DNA of 64,000 nucleotides from an uncultured Acidobacteriota bacterium (GTDB lineage: Bacteria; Acidobacteriota; UBA6911), in contig CAWHCF010000006.1 in NCBI GenBank assembly GCA_963827655.1, positions 224,001 to 288,000 on the forward strand, written 5' to 3'. Below the pieces are notes generated by a model that saw nothing but the letters and a program-made list of their open reading frames with translations, had not been told where the DNA came from and did no database searches. Shown here in pieces: positions 4,597 through 39,966 of this stretch (position 1 is its first letter; each line of letters opens with the position of its first letter). A program made the translations under genes and the position numbers.

Positions 4597-4713
4597 ACGA
4601 TTGACGATTTACGATTGACGATTGACGATTGACGATTGACGATTGAAAAAAAGCTCGGCGGCTAATCGCCCAGCTGTTTTTCAATCGTCAATCGTAAATC
4701 GTAAATCGTCAAT
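4597..4713. repeat. Inverted pair of heptamer tandem arrays, (ACGATTG)x7 ... (CAATCGT/AAATCGT)x4.5, able to form a long hairpin
   Basis: Read directly: arrays at 4597-4645 and 4682-4713; the spacer is also partly self-complementary. Confidence 0.95.
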
Positions 4714-4730
4714 AAGAATGGGGAACGACA

Positions 4731-6126
4731 ATGACCTTTCTATCTCGCTTCGCTCGTTTGCCATCCTTCCGTTTGAGTGGGGCATGCGTGGCTCTGCTCG
4801 CGCTGGTGTCGGGACCTGCCCAAGACGGAGCTCGAGGAGTCAACTGGCCTTCCTTTCGGGGCCTCAACGGCAGCGGAATTTCGGAGGGATACTCAACCCC
4901 TGCCCGATGGAACGCCGAGACCGGCGAAAACGTTGGATGGAAAACGCCGATTCCGGGTCTGGGCCATTCGAGCCCCACGGTTTGGGAAAACATGATCTTT
5001 GTAACCAGCGCCGTCAGCGGCCAGGAAAAGCCGGTCCTGAAAGTCGGCTTGTATGGCGATATCGCTCCCGTGAATGACGACACGGTTCACAGCTGGCGGG
5101 TTTATTGCCTGGACAGGCGCACCGGTCGCCAACGTATGGGAGCAGACCGCGCACGCCGGCGTTCCTAAAATCAAAAGACATACCAAAGCGACGCATGCGA
5201 ATTCCACGGTGGCGACCGACGGGAAGCACGTAGTGGCATTTTTCGGCTCGGAGGGACTCTACTGTTATGACCTGAAAGGAAAGCTACTGTGGAAGAAAGA
5301 CCTCGGGCTGCTGGATTCCGGCTACTATGTCGTCCCTTCGGCTCAGTGGGGATCAGCCAGCTCGCCGATCATCTACAAAAACACGGTCATCGTTCAGTGC
5401 GACGTCCAGAAAGGCTCGTTCATCGCGGCCTTCAGTCTCAAAGATGGAGGCGAGATCTGGCGCACGCCTCGAAATGACGTCCCGACCTGGAGCACTCCGG
5501 CGATCTTCGAGACCGGCTCGCGGGCGCAGCTCATAGTCAATGGGTACAGACACATTGGCGGCTATGATGCCGCGACCGGACAGGAAATCTGGAAACTTAC
5601 CGGCGGTGGAGACATCCCGGTGCCAACTCCAGTCATCGCCCATGGCCTGGTCTTCATCACCAACGCTCACGGCCGCATGGCTCCCATCTACGCGGTCCGC
5701 CTGGGCGCAACCGGTGACATTTCTCTCAAAGGCGAAGAGAAGGCGAACCAGCATATAGCCTGGAGTCAGACGCGGGAAGGGGCTTACATGCAGACGCCGC
5801 TCGTCTACGGAGACTATCTCTACACCTGCAGAGACAACGGCGTACTCAGTTGTTATGAGGCCAGAACCGGAAATCGCGTTTATCAGGTGCGCCTCGCCGA
5901 TGGCCGGACCGGGTTCACCGCTTCCCCGGTCGCCGGGGATGGAAAGATCTATTTCACGAGCGAGGAGGGCGAGATCCATGTCGTAAAAGCAGGGCCGGAA
6001 TTTGAACTGCTTGCCAAGAACCCGATGGGCGAAATCTGCATGGCCACGCCTGCCATTTCCGAGGGATCGCTCTTTTTCCGCACTCAGGGGCATCTGGTTG
6101 CCATCTCGGAAAAATCCAAGCGGTAA
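4731..6126 (+). CDS. PQQ-like beta-propeller (BamB-like) secreted protein, frameshift near 5125
   Basis: NWPSFRG, WKTPIPGLGHSSP, ANSTVATDG and MATPAIS motifs split over ORFs 4731-5168 and 5074-6126. Confidence 0.85.
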
Positions 6127-6290
6127 GCCTATTCACGCGAAGTATTGCCGGCCGCGACCGAGACATGCAGAGCCGACTCCTACCGCTCCAATCAGCTTCC
6201 TAGCCGCAACGAATAAAATCCACCACTAAGACGCTAGAACCTCAGAGCGATCTTGTGGACAGAGTGGGGTTCCGTAGTATCCTTGACACC

Positions 6291-9108: not shown

Positions 9109-9546
9109 TCACGATGGAATGGTTTCAAGCGTCTTGGCTCCGCCTTGGACAGCGGCAACTGGAATGTGACGGTCTAAGGTCGCCAGCTTGCCACCGCGAT
9201 GGACCGACAGGCCAAGCAAGTAAACGTCGGTCAGATGGCTATGATTGATAGCGGCCCCGATCGTGAAGAGTCTTTCGTCCAAGAGACTAACTTCATCCGG
9301 CCAGAAGCGATGTCCCTTGCCGCCACAAAACTGGCGAAGAATTCCAAGGATTTCCTGCGGGCTGCCGGGACAACCGGGATAGCTGGGATGGCTTGCGATG
9401 CGCACAACTCCGTTTTCGGTCATCGGACAGGTCGCCCACGAGCGATGGCCTATTGATCGAAACCAGCGGTGAGCCGCGTCATGCGAAACGTGGTGGGGGT
9501 CGAATAACGCCAGTAAAACGTTAACGTCAAGTAGATATGCCGTCAC
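9109..9546 (-). CDS. vapC: Type II TA toxin, PIN domain
   Basis: YLLDVNVLLAL, TENG, TDVYLL, LATLDR PIN motifs; overlaps the antitoxin stop. Confidence 0.9.
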   Translation of the reverse strand: MTAYLLDVNVLLALFDPHHVSHDAAHRWFRSIGHRSWATCPMTENGVVRIASHPSYPGCPGSPQEILGILRQFCGGKGHRFWPDEVSLLDERLFTIGAAINHSHLTDVYLLGLSVHRGGKLATLDRHIPVAAVQGGAKTLETIPS

Positions 9547-9770
9547 GGGGCCTCATCCCGAAGCCGGTTGACCAGCTCCAGAGTGACAACGGTCGAGCCG
9601 GGCTGAGTATCAAATAATGGCACCCCATTTCGCGACCGTGAGGCCCGGTCACGGCGTAGGCCCTTGCGTGCCAGCTCGGACAAGACCTTGCCAGCTGGAA
9701 GGCCCCGGTGCCGTGCAAGATTCTTGGCTGCCAGGAGAACATCTTCGTCAATATCAAGTGTCGTTCTCAT
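9543..9770 (-). CDS. vapB: Type II TA antitoxin (VapB/CopG-like RHH)
   Basis: MRTTLDIDEDVLLAAK N-terminus, RNGVPL; 75 aa directly upstream of the PIN toxin. Confidence 0.85.
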   Translation of the reverse strand: MRTTLDIDEDVLLAAKNLARHRGLPAGKVLSELARKGLRRDRASRSRNGVPLFDTQPGSTVVTLELVNRLRDEAP

Positions 9771-9862
9771 AGCTGAATATCATCACGCATCACGCATCAG
9801 ATGTCAAATACTCCCTGGGCGTGGGAAAGCTAGCCCCAGCGTTCTTTAACGGGGGACGGCTC

Positions 9863-10942
9863 TTATTGCCGGCTGACCAGAACCAGGCCGGTAACGATGA
9901 TGTTGAGCACCGATAACGGCAGCAGCATTTTCCAGCCCAGATGCATGAGCTGGTCGTAGCGGAAGCGCGGAAGAGTCCAGCGGATAAGAAGCAAGAACCA
10001 GCAGAAGAAAACCACCTTGGCCCCGAACGAGGCAACCTGCAAGAGGACGACAACCGGATGCGAGAGACTCCAATGGGAGTCCCAGGGGAAGTAAAAACCG
10101 TCAGTCTGCAAGTAGGGGACCTGCCAGCCCCCGAAAAAAAGAGTGGCCGTCAGGGCCGCAACCAGGACCGTCTCGATGAAATCGGTCATGAAGAACGCGC
10201 CAAACTTCATGCTGCTGTATTCCACGAAATAGCCGATGATCTCGGACTCCCCCTCGGGCAGATCAAACGGCACGCGTTTCGTCTCGGCGATTCCAGCCAC
10301 TAAAAACAACACGAATCCCAGAGGCTGAAGCACGATTCCCCATTTCGGAAGCCATCCCCACAGCAGTTCCCCTTGCTGCCGATTCAACTGCGCCAGGTCC
10401 AGAGTTCCAAAAATCATCAGCAGGCCGACCAGCGTGGCCCCCATCGTGATTTCGTAACTGATCATCTGACTGGACGCGCGCAAGCCGCCGAGGAAGGCAA
10501 ACTTGTTATTCGAGGAGAAGCCGGCCAGAAAGCTGCCGTAGACGCCCATCGACATCATCGCGAAAATGAAGAGCAACCCGACGTCCAGCGGAAGAATTTG
10601 CAGCTCGATCCTTCGCCCCGCCACCTGAATCGCGTCGCCGAACGGAATCGAGGCGAAACTCATAAGCGCAAAAAACAGCGCGATCAGGGGTGCGATCGTG
10701 TGCAGGAATTTGTCGCCTCCGGGAGGAACGAAGTCCTCTTTGAAAAACATTTTGAGAGCATCGGCGAAGATATGAAACAACCCGAAAGCCCGCAGGCCGA
10801 AAATCGGGGCGCGGTTGGCCCCGATGCGATCCTGCATTACCGCCGACTGTTTTCGCTCCATCCAGGTGAGGAGCGACGTGAGAATCAGGATCGCGTTGAT
10901 GAAGACAACCGCCTTGATGAAAATGATGACGATGTCAATCAT
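9863..10942 (-). CDS. nuoH: NADH-quinone oxidoreductase subunit H
   Basis: ERK..A..QDRIG.NR, ISYE, RVPFDLPEGESE, RWTLPRFRYDQLM. Confidence 0.97.
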   Translation of the reverse strand: MIDIVIIFIKAVVFINAILILTSLLTWMERKQSAVMQDRIGANRAPIFGLRAFGLFHIFADALKMFFKEDFVPPGGDKFLHTIAPLIALFFALMSFASIPFGDAIQVAGRRIELQILPLDVGLLFIFAMMSMGVYGSFLAGFSSNNKFAFLGGLRASSQMISYEITMGATLVGLLMIFGTLDLAQLNRQQGELLWGWLPKWGIVLQPLGFVLFLVAGIAETKRVPFDLPEGESEIIGYFVEYSSMKFGAFFMTDFIETVLVAALTATLFFGGWQVPYLQTDGFYFPWDSHWSLSHPVVVLLQVASFGAKVVFFCWFLLLIRWTLPRFRYDQLMHLGWKMLLPLSVLNIIVTGLVLVSRQ

Positions 10943-10944
10943 TC

Positions 10945-11084
10945 GATTTCGGATTTCGGATTTCGGATTTCGGATTAAGAGATTCGATTGATTGGGAAGC
11001 TACCGTACGCATGGTTAACAAATCCATTGTCAAACGAACACATCCCGTTCAATCCGCAATCCGCAATCCGCAATCCGCAATCGG
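10945..11084. repeat. Inverted pair of heptamer arrays (GATTTCG)x4.5 ... (CAATCCG)x5 at the nuoG-nuoH junction
   Basis: Arrays at 10945-10976 and 11050-11084; the right arm lies in the last codons of nuoG. Confidence 0.93.
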
Positions 11085-12686
11085 CTGGCCGGCGTCTCCG
11101 ACGGTGTCATAGGTCATCCCGGCGAACGGAGGCTCGCGCTCCCCTATTTCGCGGAATATCTCTTCAGGCAGCGTCGTTTTCAACGGCACATCAAGTTCGG
11201 CGGCGAGCCGGCCAAGGATCTCGAGATCGGGAAGCGACTCTCCCAGAGGCGGCACGGCCGGCAGGATGCGCTGCACACGCCCCTCAAGATTGGTAAACGT
11301 CCCCTCTTTTTCAGCATACACAGAAGCGGGCAGCAAAACCTGCGCCATGGACGCAGTCGGGTGTTCCCACGGTCCCTGGAATGCAACGAAATCCACGTTG
11401 CCGAGGGACCTCAAGACCTCCTGGGCGTCAAACCCCGTCGTCAGGTCATGGTAAAAAATATAGACAAAATGAACTCGACCTTCAGCGCACGCGCGCAGCA
11501 GGTCGTCGCTGCCGGCTCCGCTCAACCCCAGCGCCTCGGCGCCTCGGGAGTTCGGATTCTTGTCGGCTGTGATCAAGATATCGTCGGAGTAAACCTGACG
11601 ACGAAGGGGCACACGATACTCGAGCCGGCGAATGTTAAGCCCATTCTTGAAAATCTGGCGCAGTGAATAGAGCTCTTCGTTGGTCATCTGCGGAGAAGCC
11701 AGGACCGCGACGCCGTCGGGACCATGCTTTTGTAATGTCTCGCGCAATACGGCGGCCGTCTTCTTGATTGCGTCATCCCAGGTGACTTCCTGCCACCGAT
11801 CGCCCTGGCGCAGCATGGGCGTCCTCAAGCGGTCCACCGAATCGATCGCGCGATAGGCGTATCGCCCCTCGTCGCACATCCAGTAACCGTTGACATCCTT
11901 GTTGTACCGGGGCTTCAGGCGATGAACCCGTTTGTCATGGTAGCGCGCGTTGAAGCGCTCGTTATAGTGAATCTCAGTATTGCATCCGCGGCTGCATCCC
12001 GGGCAGACCGAGTTGGTTCTGCCAAGAAACCAGACCCTGCATTGGAATCGGAAATCACGGTCGGTGAGGGCTCCGACCGGGCAAATATCTACCACGTTGC
12101 CCGAGTACGGATTGTCGAGCTGAACGCCCGGAAATAAATCGATCTCGCTGAGATGGCCGCGATCGTGCACCGCGAGTTCGCCCGTCCTGGATATCTCTCG
12201 AGTGAAACGGACGCAGCGAGTGCAGAGGATGCAGCGTTCCTGGTCCAGGATAACCGTGGGTCCAATCGGGAACGCCTTCTTGCGCTTGGTCTTGTTCTCG
12301 TTAAAACGGGGATCGTAAGCCCCGTGCTCCATATAGTAGTTCTGCAGCTCACACTCACCCGATTGATCGCACACGGGGCAATCGAGGGGATGATTAAGGA
12401 GGAGAAACTCCAGGACAGATTGCCGATTGCGGAGCGCGTCGGGTGTCTGGGTCCGGATCACCAGACCCTCCGCAACCGGAGTAGCACACGAAGGCTGAAG
12501 CTTGGGAATCTTCTCAATCTCTACCAGGCACATCCGGCAGTTCCCCACCACCGACAGACCCGGGTGGTAGCAGTAGTAGGGGATCTTGATGCCGGCCTGC
12601 CGCGCGGCTTCGATCAGAGCCGTCCCTTTAGGTGCCTGCACGGTCTGGCCGTCGATGGTCAGCGTGACCAGTTCCTTTTCCGACAC
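11049..12686 (-). CDS. nuoG: NADH-quinone oxidoreductase subunit G (short, ~545 aa)
   Basis: CYHPGL..VGNCRMC, HPLDCPVCDQSGEC, CILCTRC, CPGCSRGC Fe-S motifs; GTG at 12686 preceded by AGGAG. Confidence 0.9.
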   Translation of the reverse strand: MSEKELVTLTIDGQTVQAPKGTALIEAARQAGIKIPYYCYHPGLSVVGNCRMCLVEIEKIPKLQPSCATPVAEGLVIRTQTPDALRNRQSVLEFLLLNHPLDCPVCDQSGECELQNYYMEHGAYDPRFNENKTKRKKAFPIGPTVILDQERCILCTRCVRFTREISRTGELAVHDRGHLSEIDLFPGVQLDNPYSGNVVDICPVGALTDRDFRFQCRVWFLGRTNSVCPGCSRGCNTEIHYNERFNARYHDKRVHRLKPRYNKDVNGYWMCDEGRYAYRAIDSVDRLRTPMLRQGDRWQEVTWDDAIKKTAAVLRETLQKHGPDGVAVLASPQMTNEELYSLRQIFKNGLNIRRLEYRVPLRRQVYSDDILITADKNPNSRGAEALGLSGAGSDDLLRACAEGRVHFVYIFYHDLTTGFDAQEVLRSLGNVDFVAFQGPWEHPTASMAQVLLPASVYAEKEGTFTNLEGRVQRILPAVPPLGESLPDLEILGRLAAELDVPLKTTLPEEIFREIGEREPPFAGMTYDTVGDAGQPIADCGLRIAD

Positions 12687-12736
12687 TATTGTGCTCCTAG
12701 GTACGGACGACCTTTTGCCGCCCTGAATCCTGAATC

Positions 12737-13249
12737 CTAGTTTTTGGGTCCGATCAGCGGCTGTCGCTTCTGAATCGGATAGTCCTTCCGTAGCGGGTGT
12801 CCTTTGAACTCTTCGTACAACAGGATGCGCTTGAGGTCGGGATGGCCGGCAAAACCAATCCCGAACATGTCCCAGACCTCCCGTTCGAGCCAGTCCGCGC
12901 AGCCCCACAGGGAAGTCACCGAATCGACCTCGGCAGCGGATTCTTCGAGCCGGATTTTGATTCGTAACCGCCGCTTGAAGGGAAGCGATACCAGGTGATA
13001 GACAACGTCAAACCGCGGTTTCCGACCCACATAGTCTACTGCCGTGAGATCGGCGAGCAGGTCAAACAGGAGCCGCGGATCATTCTTCAGAAACTCAAGG
13101 ATCTTTCTCAGCGCCCGCGGCCGAATGATGGCAGTAGCGTCCCCCTGAGGCAAAGCAATTTCGATAATGTCGTCAGGGAAGCTTTCGTTGAGCAACTGAA
13201 GCGCTTCGGCGTTTGTAGCCGACGGTCCACCGGAAGAATTGACTACCAT
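12737..13249 (-). CDS. nuoC: NADH-quinone oxidoreductase subunit C
   Basis: DLTAVDY, WLEREVWDMFGI.F.GHPDLKRIL, GHPLRKDYP. Confidence 0.96.
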   Translation of the reverse strand: MVVNSSGGPSATNAEALQLLNESFPDDIIEIALPQGDATAIIRPRALRKILEFLKNDPRLLFDLLADLTAVDYVGRKPRFDVVYHLVSLPFKRRLRIKIRLEESAAEVDSVTSLWGCADWLEREVWDMFGIGFAGHPDLKRILLYEEFKGHPLRKDYPIQKRQPLIGPKN

Positions 13250-13593
13250 TCAAGCGCGCCCACTTTCCATGCGTATACAAAGCCCACACCGACAATCAGA
13301 AGAAACACCAGCATTTCCACAAAACCGAACCACCCGAGATCGCGAAAGACGACCGCCCAGGGAAAGATAAACGCCAACTCGACGTCGAAGAGGATAAAGA
13401 GCAAGGCGACGAGATAAAACTTCACCTGCACCGGCGCATGCTTCATTCCTTCTGATGGGAGGCCCGATTCGAACGGCGCATCCTTTACCGGCGATCTCTT
13501 CTTAGGTCCCAGAATAGCCGACAAGAAGACGAACGAACCCGCGATCAAGCCCGCCAGAGCCGCCATCACGAGCAGGGGGATCATGTATTCCAT
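13243..13593 (-). CDS. nuoA: NADH-quinone oxidoreductase subunit A
   Basis: PFESG, FYLVALLFILFDVE, YAWKVGALEW. Confidence 0.97.
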   Translation of the reverse strand: MEYMIPLLVMAALAGLIAGSFVFLSAILGPKKRSPVKDAPFESGLPSEGMKHAPVQVKFYLVALLFILFDVELAFIFPWAVVFRDLGWFGFVEMLVFLLIVGVGFVYAWKVGALEW

Positions 13594-13706: not shown

Positions 13707-15398
13707 TCACGCAAGTCGAACGACGCGCGTTTGAGAGAGCTTGTCCTGAAGGCAGTCGGAATCAGCATCAAAGAAACCCCAAATTAACCCCGCCCCCAGG
13801 CCGAGAAGCGACAGAAGGTAGACCGCGGATCGGATCAACAGTCGGACAAAAGTAGGACGACTCCCAGACTTTCCAACAACCCGGAGGTTCGTGAACATCA
13901 TTCCTATCGTCTGGTTTGCAGTCCCGAGGAAGAAGAGGGAGTATACGAGGAAGATTGCAACCACCAGCAAAGAGTAGTGGATCAAACTGCGAGAATCAGA
14001 AACAGTGATGCCCGAAACCACATCAGTCACCAGGATGAAGGCGCCCCCGCACAAGAATACAATAATCAGGTCCAACAGGCCGGAGAGAGTGCGTGACAGC
14101 AGGATGAGTTTCTCCGGACTCTCCTCATCTCTGACTTGCTCCGGCGCGATGATCTTTTCGGGCAACTCCGAGGCTTTTGTCTGAATGGCTTCGCGCGCCA
14201 TCACGCTATCGATGAGATTCTCGATCTCGCCAGGGTTAGATAGCGGAATCGACTCTCCCGCCTCTGGAGAAGCTACCCTGGCCTCGGACTCCGCCACCGG
14301 TTCCGGTTTCGAGTCGCGCGAGAGAGAAGCGGCTAGAGGCTCCGGATCTACCGGATAATGCAAGAGCGATTCTTCGGTGCCCGGCGAACCAGTTCCGGAC
14401 GCCTCGGCCTCCGCCACCGGTTCCGGTTTCGAGTCGCGCATGAGAGAGGAGGCGGCTAGAGGCTCCGGGTCTACCGGATAATGCGAGAGCGATTCTTCGG
14501 TGCCCGGCGAACCAGTTCCGGATGCCTCCGCCTCCGCCACCAGTTCTGGTTTCGAGTCGCCCATGGGAGAGGGGGCGGCTAGAGGCTCCGGGTCTACCGG
14601 ATAACGCGAGAGCGATTCTTCGGTGCCCGGTGAACCAATTCCGGATGCCTCCGCCTCCGCCACCAGTTCTGGCTTCGAGTCACCCATGGGAGAGGGGGCG
14701 GCTAGAGGAGCCGGATCTACCGGATAATGCGAGATCGGTTCTTTGGCGCCCGGTGAACCAATTCCGGATGCCTCGGCCTCCGCCACCGTTTCTGGTTTCG
14801 AGTCACCCAGCGAAGAGGGGACGGCTAGAGGAGCCGGATCTACCGGATAATGCGAGATGGATTCCTCGGTACCCGGCGAACCGACCCGGGACGCCTCGGC
14901 CTGCGCCACCGGTTCCGGCTCGGAGGACGGAGCATCGACCGGATAGGGAAGTTTGTTGGCTGATTCCGCTTGGGATGGTTGGCCGGCCTGCCCTGCCGCC
15001 TGTCGAGGCATCTTGCGCGCGATCCGCGGCCTTTGGACGGGAGGCGCCGATCGACCCTGGAGCTCGGGTTTGGGGAAGGGTAGCTTACCGAGGTTCGCCG
15101 TTTTCTCGAGCGCCTCTCTGTCTTGTTTGATCTTCTGGAGCCGCTGATTGAGTTCCAGCCTCCATTGAGGCAGCGCGTCGCCTTTCTGCGCGCGCTCGTT
15201 GATCCGCTCTGGACCGTGTTCCTCGAGGTTGTCAGCCGGGATGCGGGGTCGTTTGGAGCGAGCTAAGCCTTCAACCGGGGTCGCTGTCTGGATCTTGGTG
15301 TCACAAACCGGGCAGCTCCCCGATTCATCGAGCTCGCTCTTCCGGCACTTTGGACATTGCACGAGGCGACGAGTATAGCACAAGCGCTTGCGCCCCAT
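13707..15398 (-). CDS. RDD-family membrane protein with N-terminal Zn ribbon and internal 41-aa repeats
   Basis: CPKC...CPVC; C-terminal SRTLSGLLD, QTIGMM..LRVV, LQDKLSQTRVV (RDD); start uncertain. Confidence 0.8.
   Translation of the reverse strand: MGRKRLCYTRRLVQCPKCRKSELDESGSCPVCDTKIQTATPVEGLARSKRPRIPADNLEEHGPERINERAQKGDALPQWRLELNQRLQKIKQDREALEKTANLGKLPFPKPELQGRSAPPVQRPRIARKMPRQAAGQAGQPSQAESANKLPYPVDAPSSEPEPVAQAEASRVGSPGTEESISHYPVDPAPLAVPSSLGDSKPETVAEAEASGIGSPGAKEPISHYPVDPAPLAAPSPMGDSKPELVAEAEASGIGSPGTEESLSRYPVDPEPLAAPSPMGDSKPELVAEAEASGTGSPGTEESLSHYPVDPEPLAASSLMRDSKPEPVAEAEASGTGSPGTEESLLHYPVDPEPLAASLSRDSKPEPVAESEARVASPEAGESIPLSNPGEIENLIDSVMAREAIQTKASELPEKIIAPEQVRDEESPEKLILLSRTLSGLLDLIIVFLCGGAFILVTDVVSGITVSDSRSLIHYSLLVVAIFLVYSLFFLGTANQTIGMMFTNLRVVGKSGSRPTFVRLLIRSAVYLLSLLGLGAGLIWGFFDADSDCLQDKLSQTRVVRLA
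14248..14946 (-). repeat. Coding tandem repeat, 123-bp unit, about 5 full copies plus a partial copy
   Basis: CTACCGGATAA recurs at 14348, 14471, 14594, 14717 and 14840 (period 123); unit HYPVDPxPLAxxSxxxDSKPExVAEAEASGxGSPGxxExxS. Confidence 0.95.
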
Positions 15399-15528: not shown

Positions 15529-15831
15529 ATGACATTTCGAAATCGGACCCTCATGCTGCTGTGCCTCGGAATCCTCGCCTGCGGCGCGTACGCGATCACC
15601 CGCTTTTACTCGATTGTTCTTGTGGCCTACGTGGTCGAAGAGTCATTGATTCAGAAAGCTCCCGACGGGGCGGACACCGCCCGGATTCGAGCGCGATTTC
15701 AAGGGCTCGTCGATTCGCTTCCTGACCGTCGCTCGCGGCTTCAGAGGTTGATCGAGATGTCTCAGGTTCTGGAAAAGGTCCAAGGACTTGATCCGGCTGG
15801 AATGGAGCGGCTGCTTTCGATTGACGATTGA
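15529..15831 (+). CDS. Small hypothetical membrane/secreted protein
   Basis: Hydrophobic N-terminus and helical body; ends in heptamer repeats (IDD*). Confidence 0.55.
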   Translation: MTFRNRTLMLLCLGILACGAYAITRFYSIVLVAYVVEESLIQKAPDGADTARIRARFQGLVDSLPDRRSRLQRLIEMSQVLEKVQGLDPAGMERLLSIDD

Positions 15832-15912
15832 CGATTGCTAATCAATGTGGCAGAAGTAGACGGCCTCTCGATTGACGATTGATGAAATGGTCGATCGAAA
15901 CATTAGAATTCT

Positions 15913-17425: not shown

Positions 17426-17758
17426 GATTACTCCCCGATTCCTGCCGGCTTCGGCCTCTTGGCGGGGCTGTGGCTTGAACGCGCTTACCCCCGCCTGAGC
17501 GTGCATGACTACTAAAGGCCCTTTTCGTTGATAGCCACGCAACAAGTTTTTTGGATTCCCTCCAATTGGTTGAATTTTTCCGGTCTGAAAGAATTTCTTA
17601 ACCTTGGGTTCTTTTTTTCGTAACCGGCATGGGTAGCGTTATTAAGCCGAGCCGCAGGACGCCCCCGAACCAGGAACGTAACTTGCTTCGTGGCTTATCT
17701 TTGATCCTTGAGCGACAGCGCTGATGACGTCGAAGGAACAACCGTCAGGGAGGAACTA

Positions 17759-22149: not shown

Positions 22150-22220
22150 AAAGATCCTCGCAAGTTTTAGGTAGTATTCTGACGCACGTAGGGTTCGCGC
22201 AGAAATAAGTTCGCATTCTG

Positions 22221-22321: not shown

Positions 22322-22494
22322 CCCGAAGGGGCGCGATCCTCACCCTGCTTAGCGAACAGAAACCGGTTCATGATTGACCGCCGATTCTCGCGCCAGAATG
22401 TGAAGTTATTTCTGCGCGAGCCCTTAGGTCACGGAACTTATCACGGAGTCGCGAAGACACAAAGGTCGTCGTCTCTTCGGGGGCTTGCGCCGCC

Positions 22495-23253
22495 ATGAAA
22501 TCGAAAGCTGTGATGACTCTGGACCGGGTGCTTTCTCGCTTCGGCCTCGCTTCACGGACTGACTCGCGCGAAGCCATTCTAGGAGGGCGCCTGAAGGTAA
22601 ACGGGAAGGTCGTGCGCAATCCCGAACTCTGGGTGCGTCCGGAAAAGGACGTGATTCATCTCGACGGCAATCGCCTCAAACCAGCCCGCAAGGTCTACCT
22701 CCTTTTCTACAAACCTAAAGGAGTGATCACCAGTCATGGAGACCCCGGCGATCGCAAGACCGTTTACGACTACATTCAGGAGAAGAACGCCTGGGTTGTT
22801 CCTGTGGGGCGTCTCGATCGGGACACTTCCGGGCTGCTATTGCTGACCAACGACACCGATTTCGCCGAATTCGTTACTGCGCCTGAATCCAGGGTCCCCA
22901 AGACCTATCTTGTGAAAGTAAGTGGACTTCTCTCGGAGGAGACTTTAGCAAGCCTCAGGAGCGGGGTGAGGCTGAAAAGGGGAGATTGGGCCAAGCCTGA
23001 GAGAATTACGCGGTTGAAAGACCGAGGGAAATATACCTGGCTCGAGATTGTGCTGACCGAGGGGAAGAACCGCGAAGTCCGGCGCATGATCGAGACGGTG
23101 GGATTCAAGGCGCTCAAGCTTGTCAGGACGCGAATCGGCGCATTGACGCTGGAGAACCTCGAGGTGGGGAAGTACCGGAGAGTAACCGCCAGTGAAGTTG
23201 CTGCCCTGAAAGAGTACCGACGATCCGATTTACGATTGACGATTGACGATTGA
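22495..23253 (+). CDS. rRNA pseudouridine synthase, RsuA/RluB family
   Basis: S4 domain, YKPKGVI, PVGRLDRDTSGLLLLTND, EGKNREVRRM. Confidence 0.95.
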   Translation: MKSKAVMTLDRVLSRFGLASRTDSREAILGGRLKVNGKVVRNPELWVRPEKDVIHLDGNRLKPARKVYLLFYKPKGVITSHGDPGDRKTVYDYIQEKNAWVVPVGRLDRDTSGLLLLTNDTDFAEFVTAPESRVPKTYLVKVSGLLSEETLASLRSGVRLKRGDWAKPERITRLKDRGKYTWLEIVLTEGKNREVRRMIETVGFKALKLVRTRIGALTLENLEVGKYRRVTASEVAALKEYRRSDLRLTIDD

Positions 23254-23489
23254 CGATTGGGAGTTGGTTGTCACTTGTGATTTCTGGTTGCTTCCTCGTC
23301 TGCATCTTAACGGTTGGTTTTGTTCCGCTACACTAACCACGAAGCCACGAAGTCGCAAAGACACTGAACATGCCATTCATGATGGAAGCCGTCCCCGATG
23401 AAGCGCAGTCGGCAATCGACGAACGTCGATTGTGAGTGAGGTTGTGGTACAATCACCGTCCCAATCGTAAATCGTAAATCGTAAATCGA
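23226..23489. repeat. Inverted pair of heptamer arrays (CGATTGA)x5 ... (AAATCGT)x4 between convergent genes, enclosing a nonamer array
   Basis: Arrays at 23226-23260 and 23462-23489; CCACGAAGCCACGAAGTCGCAAAGACAC at 23337-23364. Confidence 0.9.
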
Positions 23490-31600: not shown

Positions 31601-32234
31601 CGACCAGATCCGGCAACGGATCGAGACTTTTGGCGCCATCAACATGCGCGCGCTTGAAGAATACCAGGAACTCGATGAGCGTTTTCAGTTTCTGAACCGG
31701 CAGCGCGCCGACATCGAGCAATCGATCTCCGACACTCAAAGAGCCATCGCGGAAATCAACCGCCGTTCAATCGAGCAATTCCAGGATGCGTTCACCAGTA
31801 TACGGGAGAACTTTGTCGAGGTTTTTCAGGCGCTATTCAACGGCGGCCAGTGCGACCTCCGGCTTCTTGACGAGGAGGACACGCTGGAAAGCGGAATAGA
31901 CATTATCGCTCAGCCGCCCGGGAAGCGTTTGCAGAACGTGTTGCTGCTTTCGGGGGGAGAGAAAGCCCTGACTGCGCTCGCCCTGCTGATCGCAATCTTC
32001 AAGTATCGCCCCAGCCCGTTCTGTGTGCTGGACGAGGTAGACGCTCCCCTCGATGATGCCAACGTAAATCGGTTTACGCAGCTTATGTCGAAGTTGAGCG
32101 ATGAGACTCAATTCATCATCATCACGCATAACAAAAGGACGATGGAGATCGCCGAGACGCTTTACGGTGTGACAATGGAGGAACCCGGCGTCTCGAAGAT
32201 AGTCAGCGTGGATTTCCGGCCCAAGCACAACTGA
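28632..32234 (+). CDS. smc: Chromosome segregation protein SMC
   Basis: GFKSF, Walker A GPNGCGKSN, coiled coil-hinge-coiled coil, LSGGEK, LDEVDAPLD. Confidence 0.98.
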   Translation: MAQIEKLEMIGFKSFCDRTQLSFHQGITAVVGPNGCGKSNIADAISWVVGEQSAKSLRTDRMEGIIFNGTQARKATSMAEVILSLKLLDNLRVPEGLDLNPEGFTVGRRLYRSGESEYYIDGRRCRLKDILALFEGTGLGPNSYALMEQGRIGQILSSKPADRRSLIEEAARITLFKSRRYSAETKLELAQQNLARVHDIIREVARQLNSLKRQAAKARRYNRLRDELRGVHKLKLGLEQRELAGKLEACTRRFSEAVEWEQSILRDLARAENDRSQSQEACRRQEELANRSREDLGNLKLDAERAQSAKQQQEVQKDDLEKRLKDLERETISIEERRALIEREQERLQVYRQRLLEEISTEREVLDREQARNEELVQAIRESEGKIEALRSILLNGAGELSDLRNLQARCQENIQRLQAGTARLEFERHNTAQERARFLSQLEDFRRKSTGNLSVREELAERRRRSETALAELQAKLEQVSTEVTAKQEEWSLMQHRHSSLEEVERRRSNYSEGVQKFLSTRLQGEKAPARQTLADHVETDPRYEAAVEDYLNGPLQYILVDGLDEAVESVERLKRIGAGKCTFMTLRGAQSNGNGHDVGSRVRLEGEGIVGFLDELLRMREDVKQAFERTLPDYASTVMVSDLGTAFRVAESNPHTNFLTLSGEAYSPRGTLSAVGERKSMAGFLALKREKRELEGKLESLQAKIQVARAELERLKGEQAAAHEVLKSLDGEARKLELEAVIVDHQIARVEAEVAKIDQTDDVADDELSQMLAEKQEFESKGSEAQRGIQEIEERSRSGEQQLRDLGQRLESSKAESSIVARSVATVISSQAVKHERRDSTEADLRRLSGESQEVSNRLEVNRAEKDGIQVRIGELERAQLETQTRIDQLLRLVQEGEAELAGNQTELANQRKSLAELEERLRRLHGEREESMGERGRIEIEKTRLESDLEHLERSCQDEFHASLAEILGGIPADDWQRDYLEVSQFYDQIRQRIETFGAINMRALEEYQELDERFQFLNRQRADIEQSISDTQRAIAEINRRSIEQFQDAFTSIRENFVEVFQALFNGGQCDLRLLDEEDTLESGIDIIAQPPGKRLQNVLLLSGGEKALTALALLIAIFKYRPSPFCVLDEVDAPLDDANVNRFTQLMSKLSDETQFIIITHNKRTMEIAETLYGVTMEEPGVSKIVSVDFRPKHN

Positions 32235-32393
32235 CGATTTCAGATTGCGGATTTTATCATGATTGCGGATTGCAGATTGCGGATTGAACAAACGATGGCT
32301 GATGTGGACCCAGCGTGATCGCGTGGAAGGTTTCCTCTCGCTCAGCCACTGGCTGTCTTCAATCCGCAATCCGCAATCTGCAATCCGACAATC
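32235..32393. repeat. Inverted pair of heptamer arrays (CGGATTG/CAGATTG)n ... (CAATCCG/CAATCTG)n between smc and purC
   Basis: Arrays at about 32235-32286 and 32360-32393. Confidence 0.9.
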
Positions 32394-32407
32394 GAAAGGG
32401 GGGATGC

Positions 32408-33316: not shown

Positions 33317-33439
33317 TCTTTCTTCTCGAGTAGCAAGTGCTGCGCATACTCTGCTAGTAGAGTCAAAGTGCTGTGAGGAAGTCCGACTCAGCACTTTTTA
33401 CTCAGCACTTTTTACTTTGATTGGCATATAACTCCAACC

Positions 33440-34495
33440 GTGGAGAACCTGTCGCATACCCTGGCCGGCATTGCCCTGAGCAGGGCCGGCTTGGAAAAAA
33501 AGACTGCGCTCGCAACCCCTATTCTCGCGGTCGCGGCCAATCTGCCCGACATAGATATCCTCGGATCTTTCATCGGAGAACACTACCTTGATTTTCATCG
33601 TGGAGTCACTCACGCCGCCGTCGGTCTGATGGGTCTGTCGCTGCTCATGGCGGGCGCAGCCTATGGAATCACGCGCACCAAGAAAACATGGGCCGAGTCG
33701 TCGAAATTCTTGCCCATCTTGTATGTTTGTTTCATAGGGCTGCTCTCTCATCCCTTGCTCGATTTTTTGAACGATTATGGCGTGCGCCCCTGGCTCCCGT
33801 TCAACGGTCGCCGGTACTATGGCGATCTGATCAGCATTGTCGACCCCTGGATCTGGCTGATCTTTTGGAGCGGGCTGGCGCTTGTGGCCGCGAGCCGTTT
33901 TCGCACGATAGTCTGGTTCGGGTTGGCACTGGTCATGGCGGGAGTTGTCGGTTTGGGCGTCAGCTGGTCGAGAGCGCTGCTCTGGATTACGGTGCTGGTC
34001 CTGGCGTCGGGGGCCGGGCGCGTTTTGCAACAGCGCGGGTTTCACCCCCCGCGAATGGCTCTTCTGGCTTTTGCCCTCTACCTCGCCGCCATGGTGATGG
34101 TCCGCTCGAAGGTAGTCGAGGCGGCTCGCGAGCTGGGACCCGCACTGATCCCGGAGCGTGTAGAAAAAATTGATGTGCTGCCGGCCCGTCCTGGACAGCA
34201 TCGCTGGAGAGTAATCCTGGAAACACCGGAAAAGTTTTACATTGCCGAGGTGGAATCCGGGGACTGGCGCGACCACCCGCCCGAGTTCCAGGCTTATTCA
34301 AAGAATCTCAACGACCCGTGCTATCTGCAGTCGCTGCCACAAAAGGAGATAGCAGCCATGGCGCGCTTCGCGCGGTTTCCTTCGGTCGACGTGCAGAAGT
34401 CCGGAGAGGCGTGCGTCGTTTACTTGCGCGACCTGCGCTACGCCCGCCAATCGGTAGCCGGCTGGGGTGTCGCCCGGGCCGTGGTCGAGCCGTAA
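33440..34495 (+). CDS. Membrane metal-dependent hydrolase (YdjM-like)
   Basis: SHTLAG, NLPDID, HRGVTH, SHPLLD..N.YG. Confidence 0.88.
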   Translation: MENLSHTLAGIALSRAGLEKKTALATPILAVAANLPDIDILGSFIGEHYLDFHRGVTHAAVGLMGLSLLMAGAAYGITRTKKTWAESSKFLPILYVCFIGLLSHPLLDFLNDYGVRPWLPFNGRRYYGDLISIVDPWIWLIFWSGLALVAASRFRTIVWFGLALVMAGVVGLGVSWSRALLWITVLVLASGAGRVLQQRGFHPPRMALLAFALYLAAMVMVRSKVVEAARELGPALIPERVEKIDVLPARPGQHRWRVILETPEKFYIAEVESGDWRDHPPEFQAYSKNLNDPCYLQSLPQKEIAAMARFARFPSVDVQKSGEACVVYLRDLRYARQSVAGWGVARAVVEP

Positions 34496-34496
34496 G

Positions 34497-34594
34497 CAAT
34501 TGCAGATTGTCGATTGCGGATTGAGAAAGCTATGTTGCATCCGGCCGTAGAATTAGCCGCAGTGGTTCAATCTGCAATCCGAAATCCGCAATCG
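34497..34594. repeat. Inverted pair of heptamer arrays downstream of the hydrolase gene
   Basis: CAGATTG TCGATTG CGGATTG ... CAATCTG CAATCCG AAATCCG CAATCG. Confidence 0.85.
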
Positions 34595-34844
34595 GGAGAA
34601 TGTGCTTGCAAAGAATTTTTTGCGAAGCGTAGAATGTCTCGCCTTTTGCGTTCCCCATTCAGCTGAGTCAGCTGCACGGTCGCGAAATGCGGTTGTGACG
34701 GACCATGGGGGATTGATTCATCACATTTTTCCGCTCATGAATCGGCAAGCGTTCTCACCGGTATGCCTTTTTTCAAAGACACCCGAAGGAGCCGTTTTCC
34801 CGCAGGTAACAAACCGACATTCGCAGCGGGCCGAGGGAAGCTAA

Positions 34845-35629: not shown

Positions 35630-35645
35630 CCCGCCAGCTTTTTCG

Positions 35646-35699
35646 TTGACAAGAGTGGAAACGCTCCTATATATTAGCACTCGTTTTAGTGAGTGCTAA
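35646..35699 (+). promoter_or_regulatory. Sigma70 promoter plus CIRCE (HrcA operator) of groESL
   Basis: TTGACA at 35646, TATATT at 35670; TTAGCACTC-N8-GAGTGCTAA at 35674-35699. Confidence 0.92.
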
Positions 35700-35756
35700 T
35701 TCCATATCCTAAATAAAGAAATAAAACAACTTAGGTGAACAGGAGGAGAATAGCCT

Positions 35757-36074: not shown

Positions 36075-36089
36075 GAGCCAAACATTTGA

Positions 36090-37737
<1,648 letters not shown>

Positions 37738-37764
37738 CCCGGGCCACCCGCAAAGGAACAAGCC

Positions 37765-37809
37765 GTGCCACGCATCCCGAGAAGTCAGGGGTGCGTGGCA
37801 CTTTTTTTT
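37765..37809 (+). terminator. Rho-independent terminator of groESL
   Basis: GTGCCACGCA...TGCGTGGCAC stem followed by a T run. Confidence 0.85.
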
Positions 37810-38279
37810 GGCGCGGGCGAACTGCCGGCCTCTGCGTCAGGGCTTTTGAGGGCCCGCAAGGGCCGACAGGAATAGGCCTGACCTGCGCGGCAACGTGGTT
37901 TATCGCGGCGGGAGAAGCAATATTTGACTCAATCGATTCCTGCTACAGACCGAGCCTGGTAAAGATTCGAGAGCGCATATGAAGCGCGTGAGGAGACGAA
38001 GGAGCGATCTTCGCGTAGCTCTGGGCGGCGGGCAGGGCGAATGCGCATGTTCTCTACCTGCTGGGACCTAAACGTACCATGGAACCCAGGGAAGAGGGAT
38101 AGCCCGCCGCCGGTTCTGATCATCATCAGCGTGACTTTCGCCTGTGACGATCGGCCGCAGCTTCACGTCGGACCGCTTGACCTCTTTACCGGATGTTTTT
38201 TGAATCGTCAATCGTCAATCGTCAATCGCTTAATGGCTGCTTGCTTTTTTCGATCGCGGCGGTAAGATGCTCTCCTACC

Positions 38280-39966
38280 GTGGAGACTGCTGCTCGTAGC
38301 GCATTCCTCTCTTCCCTGTTGCTTCTCCTCCTGTTTTTTGCGACCGTTCTCTTCCGGATTGGAGCTCTCCCGCTGACGGGCGCCGACGAGCCCCGATACG
38401 CGCGGGTTGCGGAAGAAATGTGGCGCGCGGGGCGATGGGTGACGCCGTTGCTGGAAGGGCGTCCCTGGCTCGAAAAACCTCCCCTCTACTATTGGATTAC
38501 CATACCGCACTACGCCGTGCTCGGTCCCACCGAGACCGCCGCCCGGCTCGGACCGGCGTTCTGTCTGCTAATCAGTTCACTCACGGTCTGGTGGCTCGGG
38601 CGGAGGCTGCTGAATCCGCTGGCCGGTCTTTATGCGGGGATGATACTCCTCACCGCCGTCGGTTTTGTAGCTTTCGGAAGAAGCGCCTCAACCGACATGC
38701 CTTTTGTGGCATGTCTCACCGTTTCGCTCGCATTGTTTTGTTTTGCCACAATCCATACCGGGGGGGCCGTGTGGGCGCTTCTGGGTGGCTACATCTTTCT
38801 TGGACTTGCTGTTCTGGGTAAGGGACCGGTCACAATCGTTCTGGTTATCGGAACCCTATCGCTCTTTTGGTGGCTGGACGAGCAAGGCGGCGCTATCCGT
38901 AAACTACGCGTCCTGCCGGGGGTCTTTATTGCGGCAGCTGTGGCTGTTCCATGGTTCGTTCTTGCCTTCCGCGACAATGGTTTCGCTTTCCTATCGGTCT
39001 TCTTCATTAACCATAATCTGATGCGATATCGTGACCGACATCCATCACCATGCGGAGCCCTTTTACTATTACGTTCCGGTATTCTTCGGAATTCTGTTTC
39101 CCTGGAGCGGATGGCTACCGCTTCTGGCGCAGGGAATTCATCGGGGAAAGTTGAGTCCAAGACGGGAATGGAACCGGACGGAACTCTTCCTCGCCTGTTG
39201 GTGTATTTTCCCGCTGATTTTCTTTTCCCTCTCGGAATCCAAGCTCTCGGGGTATATCCTGCCGTCCCTTCCCGCGGTCGCCCTCCTGTTAGGGAACCGC
39301 CTCAGCGCGGTGCAGCAAGACCGGCCGGGCGCGTTCGCCCTGTGGTTCTATCTCGGCGTCTCGGTGACGATAGCCGCGGCGCTGGTAGCCGTTTTTCAGA
39401 TCCGCTACGGCGGCCGGTGGCAAACGGGCCTGTTGCTCGCCGTAATCGCGCTGCTCCCTGCTCTTGCCGTCTGCTGGCGGGGGCTTCGAGGCCGAAACAA
39501 GTTTTTGCCGGCCTTGACGCTTTTCCACGGACTTATTCTTATCATCGGCGCCACCCAATTCGTGTTTCCCGTGCTCGGCGCATACCACTCCACTCGTGAC
39601 ATTGCCCGCCAGGCCTTGGCCGTACGTGAGGGGGGTGAGCCTATCGTTACTTACCTTTTTTTCCACCACACCCTGAATTACTATACGGATTATCAGATTA
39701 CGGGCGATCTTAAGGAACCGCAGGCGGTTGCTCGATTTGCGCAATCGAACCCGAGCTTCCTCCTCGTGACCGAGACACACCGGGTCGGTGACATCAACCA
39801 CCTGGAAGGTCTGACCGTCTCGTCCAAAGGCTCACAGGGGAAGCTGCGCCTGTTCCATGTCTCCCGCTCGGCCGGAGGCCCAAAGGCAGGATTGACGAAA
39901 TCCGCGCCAGCCCCATCGTCAATCGTCAATCGTCAATCGTCAATCCCCCGATTCCCCCTGCCTTGA
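38280..39966 (+). CDS. ArnT/PMT-family (GT-C) glycosyltransferase, frameshift near 39030
   Basis: ADEPRYARVAEEM, LEKPPLYYW, LGKGP, HHHAEPFYYY, SKLSGYILP; start approximate. Confidence 0.88.

Follow-up and report, generated by a model that had tools for sequence, protein, structure and literature searches.

Within the window (the whole 64-kb stretch of DNA analysed here), gene boundaries carry tandem arrays of a GATTKNN heptamer, most of which are organized as true inverted duplications. It is about an even call whether these arrays form a lineage-specific family of intergenic heptanucleotide SSRs that is built by slippage, folds into hairpins and acts as transcript punctuation; the punctuation function itself is putative and is suggested by sequence features. 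In kind, they match cyanobacterial STRR and, most closely, the GGGAATC arrays of Xanthomonas, and their host looks to be a member of the Acidobacteriota. Three traits are new here: the subfamily common to both arms of a pair, the placement flush to stop codons, and a polarity that distinguishes stops from starts.

Heptamer arrays in the window

Period-7 arrays were confirmed by Tandem Repeats Finder and by direct reading at each coordinate of the original prediction, with 2.4-7.1 copies and 82-100% matches per array. Paired arrays at five junctions, as had been proposed, were recovered at 4597-4646/4681-4713, 10945-10976/11050-11082, 23226-23259/23463-23488, 32236-32286/32360-32393 and 34498-34522/34566-34594, and the GATT arm precedes the AATC arm in 5/5 pairs. 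Together with four lone sites, these make up the window total, and every one lies at a gene boundary. The lone arm described earlier at 15818-15881 is indeed an array, but it consists of two direct GATT segments (15818-15837 and 15869-15881) and not of a single arm. The unit at 12722 had been listed as a separate type but belongs to the same family; its minus-strand sequence is GATTCAG, and the array begins immediately behind the nuoC stop. The repeats at 9781 (CATCACG) and 33329-33416 (AGTGCTG/CAGCACT, period 14) are other units, as had been noted, and lie outside the GATT family. The sites are as follows.

4597..4646, plus strand: GATT arm of pair 1, GATTGAC/GATTTAC x7.1, with the start of a minus-strand FtsX permease gene 22 nt away
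4647..4680, no strand: pair 1 spacer, with an A-run, a 9-bp hairpin and a T-run in that order; it extends the palindrome to 47-nt arms, 91% complementary, around a 6-nt loop
4681..4713, minus strand: AATC arm of pair 1, 4.7 units, with an ATG at 4731, 17 nt on
10945..10976, plus strand: arm of pair 2, GATTTCG x4.6 on the plus strand and AATC in the nuo mRNA sense, ending 2 nt ahead of the nuoH start codon
11050..11082, minus strand: arm of pair 2, minus-strand GATTGCG x4.7, read through along its entire length by the nuoG ORF (tail PIADCGLRIAD), whose stop lies in the inner-end GATTGA
12721..12738, minus strand: short lone array (minus-strand GATTCAG x2.4), beginning right after the nuoC TAG, with the nuoG GTG start 34 nt beyond
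15818..15837, plus strand: lone array, GATTGAC x2.9, providing the TGA (15829-15831) of a 127-aa ORF (orf127)
15869..15881, plus strand: direct GATTGAC segment of ~2 units, 31 nt 3' of 15818..15837, without an inverted partner
23226..23259, plus strand: GATT arm of pair 3, 4.9 units, providing the TGA (23251-23253) of an RluB-like gene (tail ...LRLTIDD)
23413..23432, no strand: mini-palindrome in the pair 3 spacer, CAATCGACG-AA-CGTCGATTG, single-unit and in reversed order (AATC first)
23463..23488, minus strand: AATC arm of pair 3, minus-strand GATTTAC x3.7, located 2 nt past the stop of a convergent 742-aa propeller gene
32236..32286, plus strand: GATT arm of pair 4, GATTGCG/GATTGCA units with one 11-nt interruption, 1 nt past the smc TGA
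32360..32393, minus strand: AATC arm of pair 4, 4.7 units, ending 14 nt 5' of the purC ATG (32408), from which a G-rich Shine-Dalgarno stretch separates it
34498..34522, plus strand: GATT arm of pair 5, ~3.5 units, 2 nt past the TAA stop of a ydjM-family gene
34566..34594, minus strand: AATC arm of pair 5, ~4 units, with the cvpA start 250 nt downstream and a promoter-like TTGCAA-18-TAGAAT (34606-34635) after the arm
38203..38228, minus strand: lone AATC-reading arm, 3.7 units, 5 nt ahead of the likely PMT_2 start (ATG 38234)
39915..39945, minus strand: lone AATC-reading arm, 4.4 units, within the last 52 nt of a frameshifted PMT_2 ORF (stop 39966), with the cysS ATG 51 nt on

The arrays exceed chance by a wide count, in agreement with the earlier claim. 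The pattern GATTNNNGATTNNNGATT, a phased GATT-N3-GATT-N3-GATT, gives 31 matches against 0.02 expected (at least 31 in 0/100 shuffles), and the two-unit pattern gives 52 against 2.46. Perfect runs of at least 19 nt number 11 for period 7 and 0 for each of periods 5, 6, 8 and 9; in 62 other bacterial loci (993,613 bases), perfect period-7 runs occur at 0.45 per 64 kb, so that their density in the window is ~24 times higher. Arrays are carried by 9 of the 22 intergenic regions within 1-41.4 kb, overlap coding sequence by at most the last 52 nt of ORFs, and were not found in the 40-64 kb part of the window. Five isolated two-unit matches lie within genes (7487, 12046, 12418, 26395, 27109), a number of the order of chance given the 2.46 expected.

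Units fall into two subfamilies, GATTKAC and GATTKCG/GCA. The GATTK core, five of the seven positions, is conserved across subfamilies, sites and L001 (the nearest relative, described below), while positions 6-7 vary, and no unit contains a G-run of at least 3. Within the window, the arrays have the make-up of a heptanucleotide SSR family, with at least two to three head-to-tail 7-nt copies, dispersed between genes and rare inside them.

Polarity, arm matching and folding

Read in the mRNA sense, GATT lies on the stop side and AATC on the start side in 13/15 arms. Where the nearest boundary is a start, the gene-sense reading is AATC in 5/5 arms, and where it is a stop, GATT in 8/10; this rule is drawn from five pairs and four lone sites (one ambiguous), from 64 kb plus one 14-kb relative. 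The arm at 39915..39945 is the sole lone arm that does not clearly obey it. The distance from arm to gene is 0-2 nt at stops and 2-22 nt at starts, and each of the six stop-adjacent arms either lies 0-2 nt from the stop or contains it, as for the RluB-like gene and orf127, whose TGA comes from the array.

The two arms of a pair belong to the same subfamily in 5/5 window pairs and in 2/2 pairs of L001, and they also have the same inner end (GATTGAA or GATTGGGA). Arms from the same site match each other better than permuted partners, the observed score being reached in 29/5040 permutations. The original prediction held that the arrays do not look like random slippage. Placement, polarity and pairing are indeed non-random, but the uniform units within an arm and the uneven copy numbers point to resizing of the arrays by slippage.

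The suggestion of a structured-RNA signal is borne out in so far as paired arms are capable of strong hairpins, as RNA or as DNA. All five pairs fold arm-to-arm into a long interrupted stem, with minimum free energies of -36 to -96 kcal/mol; z scores range from -2.75 to -10.2 for the plus strand and from -4.6 to -11.6 for the minus strand, and shuffles were as stable as the pair fold in 0/200 cases for 8/9 folds and in 2/200 for the remaining one. The two L001 pairs fold as well (z -4.87; z -4.01 and -2.15). A transcript of either strand is predicted to form a stem of 25-45 bp with a break about every 7 bp and the spacer looped out.

Several observations limit what a hairpin can explain. Lone arms give no fold above shuffles (z 0.1 to 1.2), so a hairpin cannot be the entire account. 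Arm complementarity is only loosely kept, with matches and mismatches in the best register of 28/4 for pair 2, 22/5 for pair 4 and 19/6 for pair 5, which counts against a hairpin-based reading; a recurrent G/T difference at unit position 5 is a real mismatch on both strands and forms no wobble pair. The genes flanking pair 1 are divergent and require no mRNA to span both arms, which counts against the punctuation reading. The retention of the GATTK core across sites and in L001 is not explained by a hairpin-only role.

Other candidate signals were examined and set aside. Structured spacers were rejected as the signal since 7/8 spacer stretches, folded alone, are no more stable than shuffles (z -1.27 to +1.02), the pair 1 spacer being the sole exception (z -2.23). 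Canonical intrinsic terminators are not enriched (21 vs 20.9 expected, 18 vs 19.6), the sites flagged at arrays being just 23244-23273 and the hairpin inside pair 1 (4657-4670), so that other 3' structures could matter. Across the whole window, Rfam at gathering score returned two tRNAs only. A sigma-70-like promoter within an array, formed by GATTGAC and a GATTTAC three units on (TTGACG-N17-TACGAT), was not found in a consensus scan; the sole overlap between scan and array was CTGACG-18-TATCAT at 32231-32260, and promoter-like sites were not enriched (4 vs 6.5 expected; 9 vs 6.2).

Relatives and described repeat systems

The comparison set consisted of 62 loci from a genome-contig search with purC as query, in which the best purC relatives are Acidobacteriota MAGs. 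The closest is L001, a 14-kb Acidobacteriota MAG locus with 68% purC identity, and it alone among the 62 combines synteny with the repeat family; the order of flanking housekeeping genes is conserved in it. An alignment of the orthologous smc-purC junction had been proposed in search of filled and empty sites. L001 proved to have a pair there too, with GATTKAC units in place of the GATTGCG/GCA of the window and a spacer that cannot be aligned, and the search gave no relative above 68% identity for such a contrast. The two arms have switched together, and it appears from this comparison that the site persists while its sequence turns over. L001 has a further pair built of GAATKAC units. Arrays are absent from L002 and L015, which are Acidobacteriota and Bryobacterales MAGs.

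The cyanobacterial STRR repeats, named earlier as the nearest analogue, are a fair one. Classical STRR unit sequences differ from GATTKNN. The likeness lies in 7-bp tandem units between genes, operons included, that are capable of hairpins, as described in the accessible text of PMC2670836 and PMC2408588, and in the roles proposed there, namely transcript stabilisation, translation coupling and transcription termination. For example, transcript stabilisation or coupling of translation was suggested for the hupS-hupL intergenic STRR hairpins (accessible text of PMC2670836), and a Nostoc intergenic repeat, ATTGCGAATTGCGAATTG, is one base per unit off the GATTGCG subfamily (accessible text of PMC2408588). 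STRRs differ in phylum and in that many unrelated units coexist, whereas one GATTK core dominates here; flush-to-stop placement and strict arm order are not among the cyanobacterial traits described in the accessible text of those papers.

According to the surveys presented in PMC4679880 and PMC4692102, heptamers are the most over-represented long SSRs in many bacteria. The Xanthomonas GGGAATC arrays are closer still than STRR (Rehm et al. 2015, PMC4692102); the accessible text of that study reports 70 and 75 inverted pairs per genome, mostly of ~4 units, a strand preference relative to the ORF, a position nearer the upstream ORF than the downstream one, and the same junctions occupied in two species with varying length and sequence. 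Intergenic tandem heptamers of ~4 units with inverted arrays nearby (five pairs in the window, two in L001) recur here, as do the ORF-relative strand preference (13/15 arms) and the proximity to the upstream ORF. Units there are G-rich and form G-quadruplexes, whereas no G-tracts occur here; the AATC-containing arm comes first there and the GATT arm here; and the phylum is another one. The 4-unit preference was ascribed to G4 formation in the accessible text of PMC4692102, an explanation inapplicable to the present units.

The TAACTGA arrays of marine Beggiatoaceae (MacGregor 2015, PMC4679880) are likewise intergenic heptamers, of 2-6 units, with a strong orientation bias to the downstream start, often ending 1 nt before it, and a role in translation has been proposed. 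As reported in the accessible text, they differ in being nearly all direct and unpaired (one inverted among 170), in forming no hairpins and in their unit. A literature search on heptamer repeats in Planctomycetes or Acidobacteria yielded nothing relevant.

Possible roles and rival explanations

Under the punctuation reading, slipped-strand mispairing would lengthen, shorten and homogenise the arms in place, from which it would follow that arms turn over fast while the site persists. The stem could protect 3' ends, signal pausing or termination, or mark a point of RNase III-type processing between cistrons. In the nuoG-nuoH case, the stop of nuoG would sit atop the 5' arm and the nuoH AUG 2 nt past the foot of the 3' arm, and the stem may mask the nuoH start until the ribosome completing nuoG melts it, which would amount to translational coupling. 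The fixed polarity, with GAUU after stops and AAUC before starts, would be the reading required in the mRNA.

It was also proposed that the arrays might be the footprint of a repeat-templating or cassette-mobilising system and be linked to four-helix-bundle genes. No counterpart was found: a Pfam scan of the 70 ORFs of the 64-kb window gave no reverse transcriptase, Avd-like protein, transposase (RAYT-like Y1 transposases included) or integrase, and DGR- or retroelement-associated repeats were rejected on that basis. That the pairs are terminal inverted repeats marking the insertion boundaries of a mobile or cassette element, whether MITE-like, REPIN-like or a templated or retro-element footprint, is highly improbable. 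The inverted arms do have variable DNA between them. The purC and cvpA genes, adjacent in 3/3 relatives (L001, L002, L015), are separated in the window by an inserted ydjM-family gene with pair 5 at its right edge, and in L001 the pair at 4338-4407 borders a segment with genes unlike those of the window. However, the left edge of the ydjM insert has a different repeat, and the opposite reading (AATC arm...GATT arm) would enclose housekeeping genes whose order is conserved with L001. Spacers are unrelated in 21 pairwise comparisons, S1-S5 alone being marginal (7/200 shuffles), and no target-site duplications or flanking direct repeats were found around the pairs, which led to rejection of a MITE. 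REP/BIME and REPIN sequences are dispersed between genes, often as inverted pairs, and form hairpins at 3' ends and between cistrons. Their units are imperfect palindromes of 20-40 nt, whereas the arms here are tandem heptamers; they are mobilised by RAYT transposases, of which none was seen in this window; and each REP family keeps its sequence, whereas the arms here vary in copy number and unit.

A more serious contender, though somewhat doubtful, is that the arrays serve no role in the cell and are a neutral or mildly selfish by-product of polymerase slippage where intergenic DNA is dispensable. Purifying selection alone would then account for polarity and edge position: in the AATC reading, for instance, an array ahead of a real start offers no ATG, GTG or TTG, and an array that invades a 3' end soon supplies a stop through a GATTGA unit. 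Homogeneous arms with unequal copy numbers (7.1 vs 4.7; 4.9 vs 3.7), tolerance of periodic inter-arm mismatches, the fast turnover of orthologous sites and the lack of arrays in L002 and L015, both Acidobacteriota, are consistent with it, as are the heptamer slippage hypothesis put forward in the accessible text of PMC4679880 and PMC4692102 and the statement of the Xanthomonas authors, in the accessible text of the latter, that no regulatory role could be identified. Independent neutral arrays, however, would not match in subfamily and inner end in 7/7 pairs (29/5040 permutations). Moreover, the GATTKCG subfamily has no stop in three frames in either orientation and yet keeps the same polarity (pairs 2, 4 and 5), and the GATTK core has survived in genomes with intergenic DNA that can no longer be aligned.

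This core is also what an unlikely third account addresses, in which the arrays are landing pads for a putative protein reading GATTK every 7 nt on dsDNA, ssDNA or RNA, such as a nucleoid or insulator protein or a cold-shock-type OB-fold protein bound once per heptamer, with inverted arms joining two protein arrays. It would fit the conservation of GATTK in both subfamilies, at all sites and in L001, against variable positions 6-7, the existence of lone arms unable to form hairpins, and the location of pair 1 in a region of divergent promoters; the binding of one cold-shock protein to each heptamer is considered in the accessible text of PMC4679880. Against it, no candidate binding protein is encoded beside any array, a 7-bp period places successive sites on different faces of duplex DNA, and the GAATKAC pair of L001 means that the core is not invariant.

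A bolder reading, which we consider quite unlikely, is a polarity-coded gene-boundary signal in which a dedicated factor recognises GAUUK/GATTK every seventh nucleotide and mediates long-range translational coupling. Acidobacteriota lineages as far apart as 68% purC identity would have conserved such a signal. Its stop-side and start-side arms would hold the intergenic spacer as a loop, termination of a ribosome on or at the 5' arm would release the start downstream, and the same stem would set the cut point of polycistronic RNA. If this were true, the length of ~4-5 units common with Xanthomonas would reflect the machinery and not G-quadruplex formation.

This is a third, phylogenetically distant case of two inverted heptamer arrays at a gene junction, and the occurrence of the same ~4-5 units without G-quadruplex potential weakens the G4 explanation offered for Xanthomonas. 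The clean placement and fixed polarity lead to testable predictions on 3'-end formation, processing and nuoG-nuoH translational coupling.

The arrays also affect gene annotation, as ORF calls gain spurious C-terminal tails and N-terminal extensions from them. The NuoG tail is among the observations in favour of the punctuation reading: only 3-5 residues come after the conserved G-x-x-G-Q motif in 87 of the 118 motif-bearing homologues (120 listed), against 11 in the window; the two nearest homologues among those listed (94% and 88% identical) have different tails of 10-11 residues.

Abundance and anatomy of the arrays

Period-7 arrays were recovered by Tandem Repeats Finder, and are visible by inspection of the sequence, at every position where the original prediction had placed one. 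The phased pattern GATT-N3-GATT-N3-GATT matches 31 times in the window against 0.02 expected from dinucleotide-preserving shuffles (n = 100), none of which reached 31, and the two-unit pattern GATT-N3-GATT matches 52 times against 2.46 expected. Eleven perfect runs of 19 nt or longer occur at period 7 and none at period 5, 6, 8 or 9; in 62 loci from other bacteria (993,613 bases), period-7 runs of this kind occur at 0.45 per 64 kb, and the three-unit pattern is absent from 59 of the 62. The arrays are confined to 4.6-40 kb, and 40-64 kb is without them. This repeat family is real, non-random and well organised, and because an independent MAG has the same architecture, it is not an artefact of assembly. 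Frameshifts in several window genes make some gene ends uncertain, notably that of PMT_2, and given these frameshifts the exact array copy numbers may include assembly errors.

Paired and lone arms of the window (GATT arm, array reading GATT units; AATC arm, its reverse complement; K, G or T)
4597-4646 / 4681-4713, pair 1, GATT arm left, units GATTKAC
10945-10976 / 11050-11082, pair 2, GATT arm left, units GATTKCG/GATTGCA
23226-23259 / 23463-23488, pair 3, GATT arm left, units GATTKAC
32236-32286 / 32360-32393, pair 4, GATT arm left, units GATTKCG/GATTGCA
34498-34522 / 34566-34594, pair 5, GATT arm left, units GATTKCG/GATTGCA
15818, 38203 and 39915, lone arms, units GATTKAC

That the GATT arm always comes first, as originally proposed, holds for 5/5 pairs. 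An inverted repeat reads identically after reverse complementation, so the order cannot depend on which strand is chosen: the asymmetry is real. The subfamily is identical between the two arms of every pair, and both arms end inwardly in GATTGAA in pairs 1 and 4 and in GATTGGGA in pair 3, with GATTGAG opposite GATTGAA in pair 5. In a permutation test of arm similarity, 29 of 5040 partner permutations were as good as the true pairing, a result driven by the match of subfamily and not by fine-scale order. Together, the shared subfamilies, the inner ends and this test indicate that the pairs are genuine inverted duplications. Arms are homogeneous within themselves and unequal in length (for example, 7.1 versus 4.7 units), and those of a pair differ at the G/T position of the unit; in the best register, matches and mismatches are 32/1, 28/4, 24/2, 22/5 and 19/6 for pairs 1-5. 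The spacers (34-203 nt) are mutually unrelated, with one marginal result among 21 pairwise comparisons, and target duplications were looked for around the pairs and none was found; on these two grounds a MITE was ruled out.

Repeats of other kinds also occur in the window. The interval between the enoyl-CoA hydratase and RluB-like genes holds a 31-nt inverted repeat with no relation to the heptamers (22190-22220 / 22394-22424; copies 173 nt apart and 90% complementary), which may be a MITE-like element. A 123-nt tandem repeat (14281-14918; 5.2 copies, 90% matches) inside an RDD-domain gene (13707-15398) encodes repeated 41-residue units, and the coiled-coil segment of a PAS-domain protein gene (61600-63123) contains a 21-nt repeat (62230-62345; 5.5 copies, 67% matches).

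Position and polarity at gene boundaries

A gene map of the window was built from ORFs and Pfam matches. Of the 22 intergenic regions that are 30 nt or longer within the first 41.4 kb, 9 carry arrays, whose arms sit at the region edges.

Distances between arms and the nearest gene boundary
smc, stop side, arm 1 nt after the stop
ydjM, stop side, arm 2 nt after the stop
742-aa propeller gene, stop side, arm 2 nt after the stop
nuoC, stop side, arm 0 nt after the stop
nuoH, start side, arm ends 2 nt before the start codon
PMT_2, start side, arm ends 5 nt before the start codon
purC, start side, arm ends 14 nt before the start codon
pair 1, start side, two arms, 17 nt and 22 nt before the start codon

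The TGA stops of the RluB-like gene and of orf127 lie within the arrays themselves, and the nuoG ORF spans an entire arm, which encodes its tail PIADCGLRIAD and supplies its stop in GATTGA at the arm's inner end. Where the nearest boundary is a start, 5/5 arms read AATC in the sense of the adjacent gene; where it is a stop, 8/10 read GATT. Two arms depart from this: the distal one of pair 5 and the lone one at 39915, which lies in the tail of the frameshifted PMT_2 ORF, 51 nt before cysS. Within a pair, the polarity rule and "GATT first" are mathematically equivalent, and the rule therefore holds whether a junction is divergent, convergent or co-directional; independent support for polarity comes from the five pairs and four lone sites (three of the latter fit and one is ambiguous). 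The edge position and polarity of the arms are new relative to the original prediction.

Several genes of the window are split over at least two reading frames: those for a BamB-like PQQ_2 protein (4731-6126), an OMP_b-brl_4/TonB-like receptor (17708-20734), the PMT_2 glycosyltransferase (38193-39966) and a CitMHS transporter (56230-58043). These point to an indel-prone assembly or to pseudogenes. By Pfam, the window encodes OMP_b-brl_4/CarboxypepD_reg proteins. Minus-strand Pfam matches at 9863-13593 run from nuoA through nuoC and nuoG to nuoH and skip nuoB, nuoD, nuoE and nuoF, making this an unusual, partial complex I cluster; beside it, a PIN-domain ORF (9109-9546) overlaps a 76-aa ORF (9527-9757), also on the minus strand, in what looks like a toxin-antitoxin pair. 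Between orf76 and nuoH, a minus-strand promoter-like TTGACA-17-GATGAT overlaps with a CATCACG array (2.7 copies, 9781-9799); the CATCACG repeat is also found in a Nitrospiraceae MAG locus (L016, 16502-16521), as a 20-nt run versus 19 nt in the window.

Turnover of sites among relatives

A genome-contig search with purC as query returned no close relative; its best matches, at 68% and 66% identity, come from two Acidobacteriota MAGs. Together, these matches, the OMP_b-brl_4/CarboxypepD_reg proteins and the names of the nuoG homologues indicate an Acidobacteriota-like host. The comparison is based on the 64-kb window and one syntenic relative, the Acidobacteriota MAG locus L001, which shares the gene order of 23.5-35 kb. 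The original prediction had looked to alignment of the smc-purC junction: L001 does carry an inverted pair at the same site (9859-9891 / 9946-9979), GATT arm first, but the spacers are unalignable, and its units are GATTKAC versus GATTGCG/GCA in the window. As both arms differ in subfamily from those of L001, they have changed subfamily together. At a divergent junction, L001 has a second pair (GAATGAC / GTAATTC, 4338-4407) where the window has none, and L001 is without an array downstream of the propeller gene, the site of pair 3. A simple hairpin, GACTAATCC-CCCTC-GGATTAGTC, is present there (121-160) and contains a single AATC/GATT inverted unit. The further Acidobacteriota loci L002 and L015 are without arrays. 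In these two and in L001, purC is followed directly by cvpA; in the window, a ydjM-family gene (33440-34495) is inserted between them. Pair 5 borders this insert on the right, and on the left it is bounded by an AGTGCTG/CAGCACT hairpin (33329-33416) in which a 14-nt unit is duplicated.

Among motif-bearing nuoG homologues, 87/118 end 3-5 residues past the conserved G-x-x-G-Q motif. The window nuoG has 11 extra, array-encoded residues after it, and the tails of its two closest homologues, at 94% and 88% identity, are different and 10-11 residues long. Judged from these protein sequences, the variation would be compatible with fast array turnover at the nuoG junction.

Folding, possible roles and described counterparts

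All pairs fold arm-to-arm on either strand. Plus-strand minimum free energies for pairs 1-5 are -62.5, -51.6, -96.3, -68.3 and -36.3 kcal/mol (z = -10.2, -4.6, -3.8, -6.1 and -2.75), and minus-strand z for pairs 1, 2, 4 and 5 is -11.6, -4.6, -7.2 and -5.1. Folded alone, 7/8 spacer stretches (two from L001) are not unusually structured, the exception being that of pair 1; lone arms showed no fold. At nuoG-nuoH, the stem reaches to within 2 nt of the nuoH AUG, and the nuoG stop is at the top of its 5' arm. No Rfam family matches the arrays, no sigma-70-like promoters are built into them, and canonical terminators are not enriched in the window.

Beyond the placement, polarity, pairing and folding potential of the arrays, which are direct observations, a mechanism can be proposed in which arrays are resized through replication slippage and transcribed together with neighbouring genes, their long interrupted stems serving as transcript punctuation through 3'-end protection, termination or inter-cistron processing. 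At nuoG-nuoH, a ribosome finishing nuoG would melt the stem, and only then would the nuoH start be unmasked. The chances that this combined account is correct are judged to be even. Its main rival, a functionless by-product shaped by purifying selection alone, is possible but somewhat doubtful. A sequence-specific factor binding the arrays would best account for the existence of lone arms and the conservation of the GATTK core, and is judged unlikely. The templating or cassette-mobilising system originally suggested finds no counterpart among the 70 window ORFs scanned, which include no reverse transcriptase, Avd-like protein, transposase or integrase, and a mobile or cassette origin of the pairs is considered very improbable.

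The arrays match in kind heptameric repeats already described elsewhere. Xanthomonas GGGAATC arrays (Rehm et al. 2015, PMC4692102) have the same architecture: there are 186 and 183 per genome, mostly of four units and 89-93% intergenic, at mean distances of 28 nt from the upstream and 160 nt from the downstream ORF, with 70 and 75 cases of two nearby convergent arrays on opposite strands. Two species carry arrays at the same junctions, with variation in length and sequence, and the authors identified no regulatory role. However, the Xanthomonas unit is G-rich, unlike those of the window, and the AATC/GATT core order is opposite. For cyanobacterial 7-bp STRR hairpins at hupS-hupL, transcript stabilisation or translation coupling has been proposed (PMC2670836), and Beggiatoaceae TAACTGA arrays have a start-codon-oriented polarity, yet are unpaired (PMC4679880). 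Literature searches returned no account of such arrays in Acidobacteria or Planctomycetes; what is new here is the phylum, the unit and the sharper positional rules, and the window arrays supply a testable hypothesis of coupling and processing. Heptamer arrays of other kinds are dense in L029, an unclassified low-GC (37%) MAG locus: besides 14143-14251, seven further period-7 arrays are listed between 1.2 and 18.8 kb, and the units include AAATCCC, TTTGGAT, GAAGTAG, TACTTCC, TAGCAAG and others; its inverted pair AAATCCC / GGATTTT places AATC first, opposite to the order in the window.
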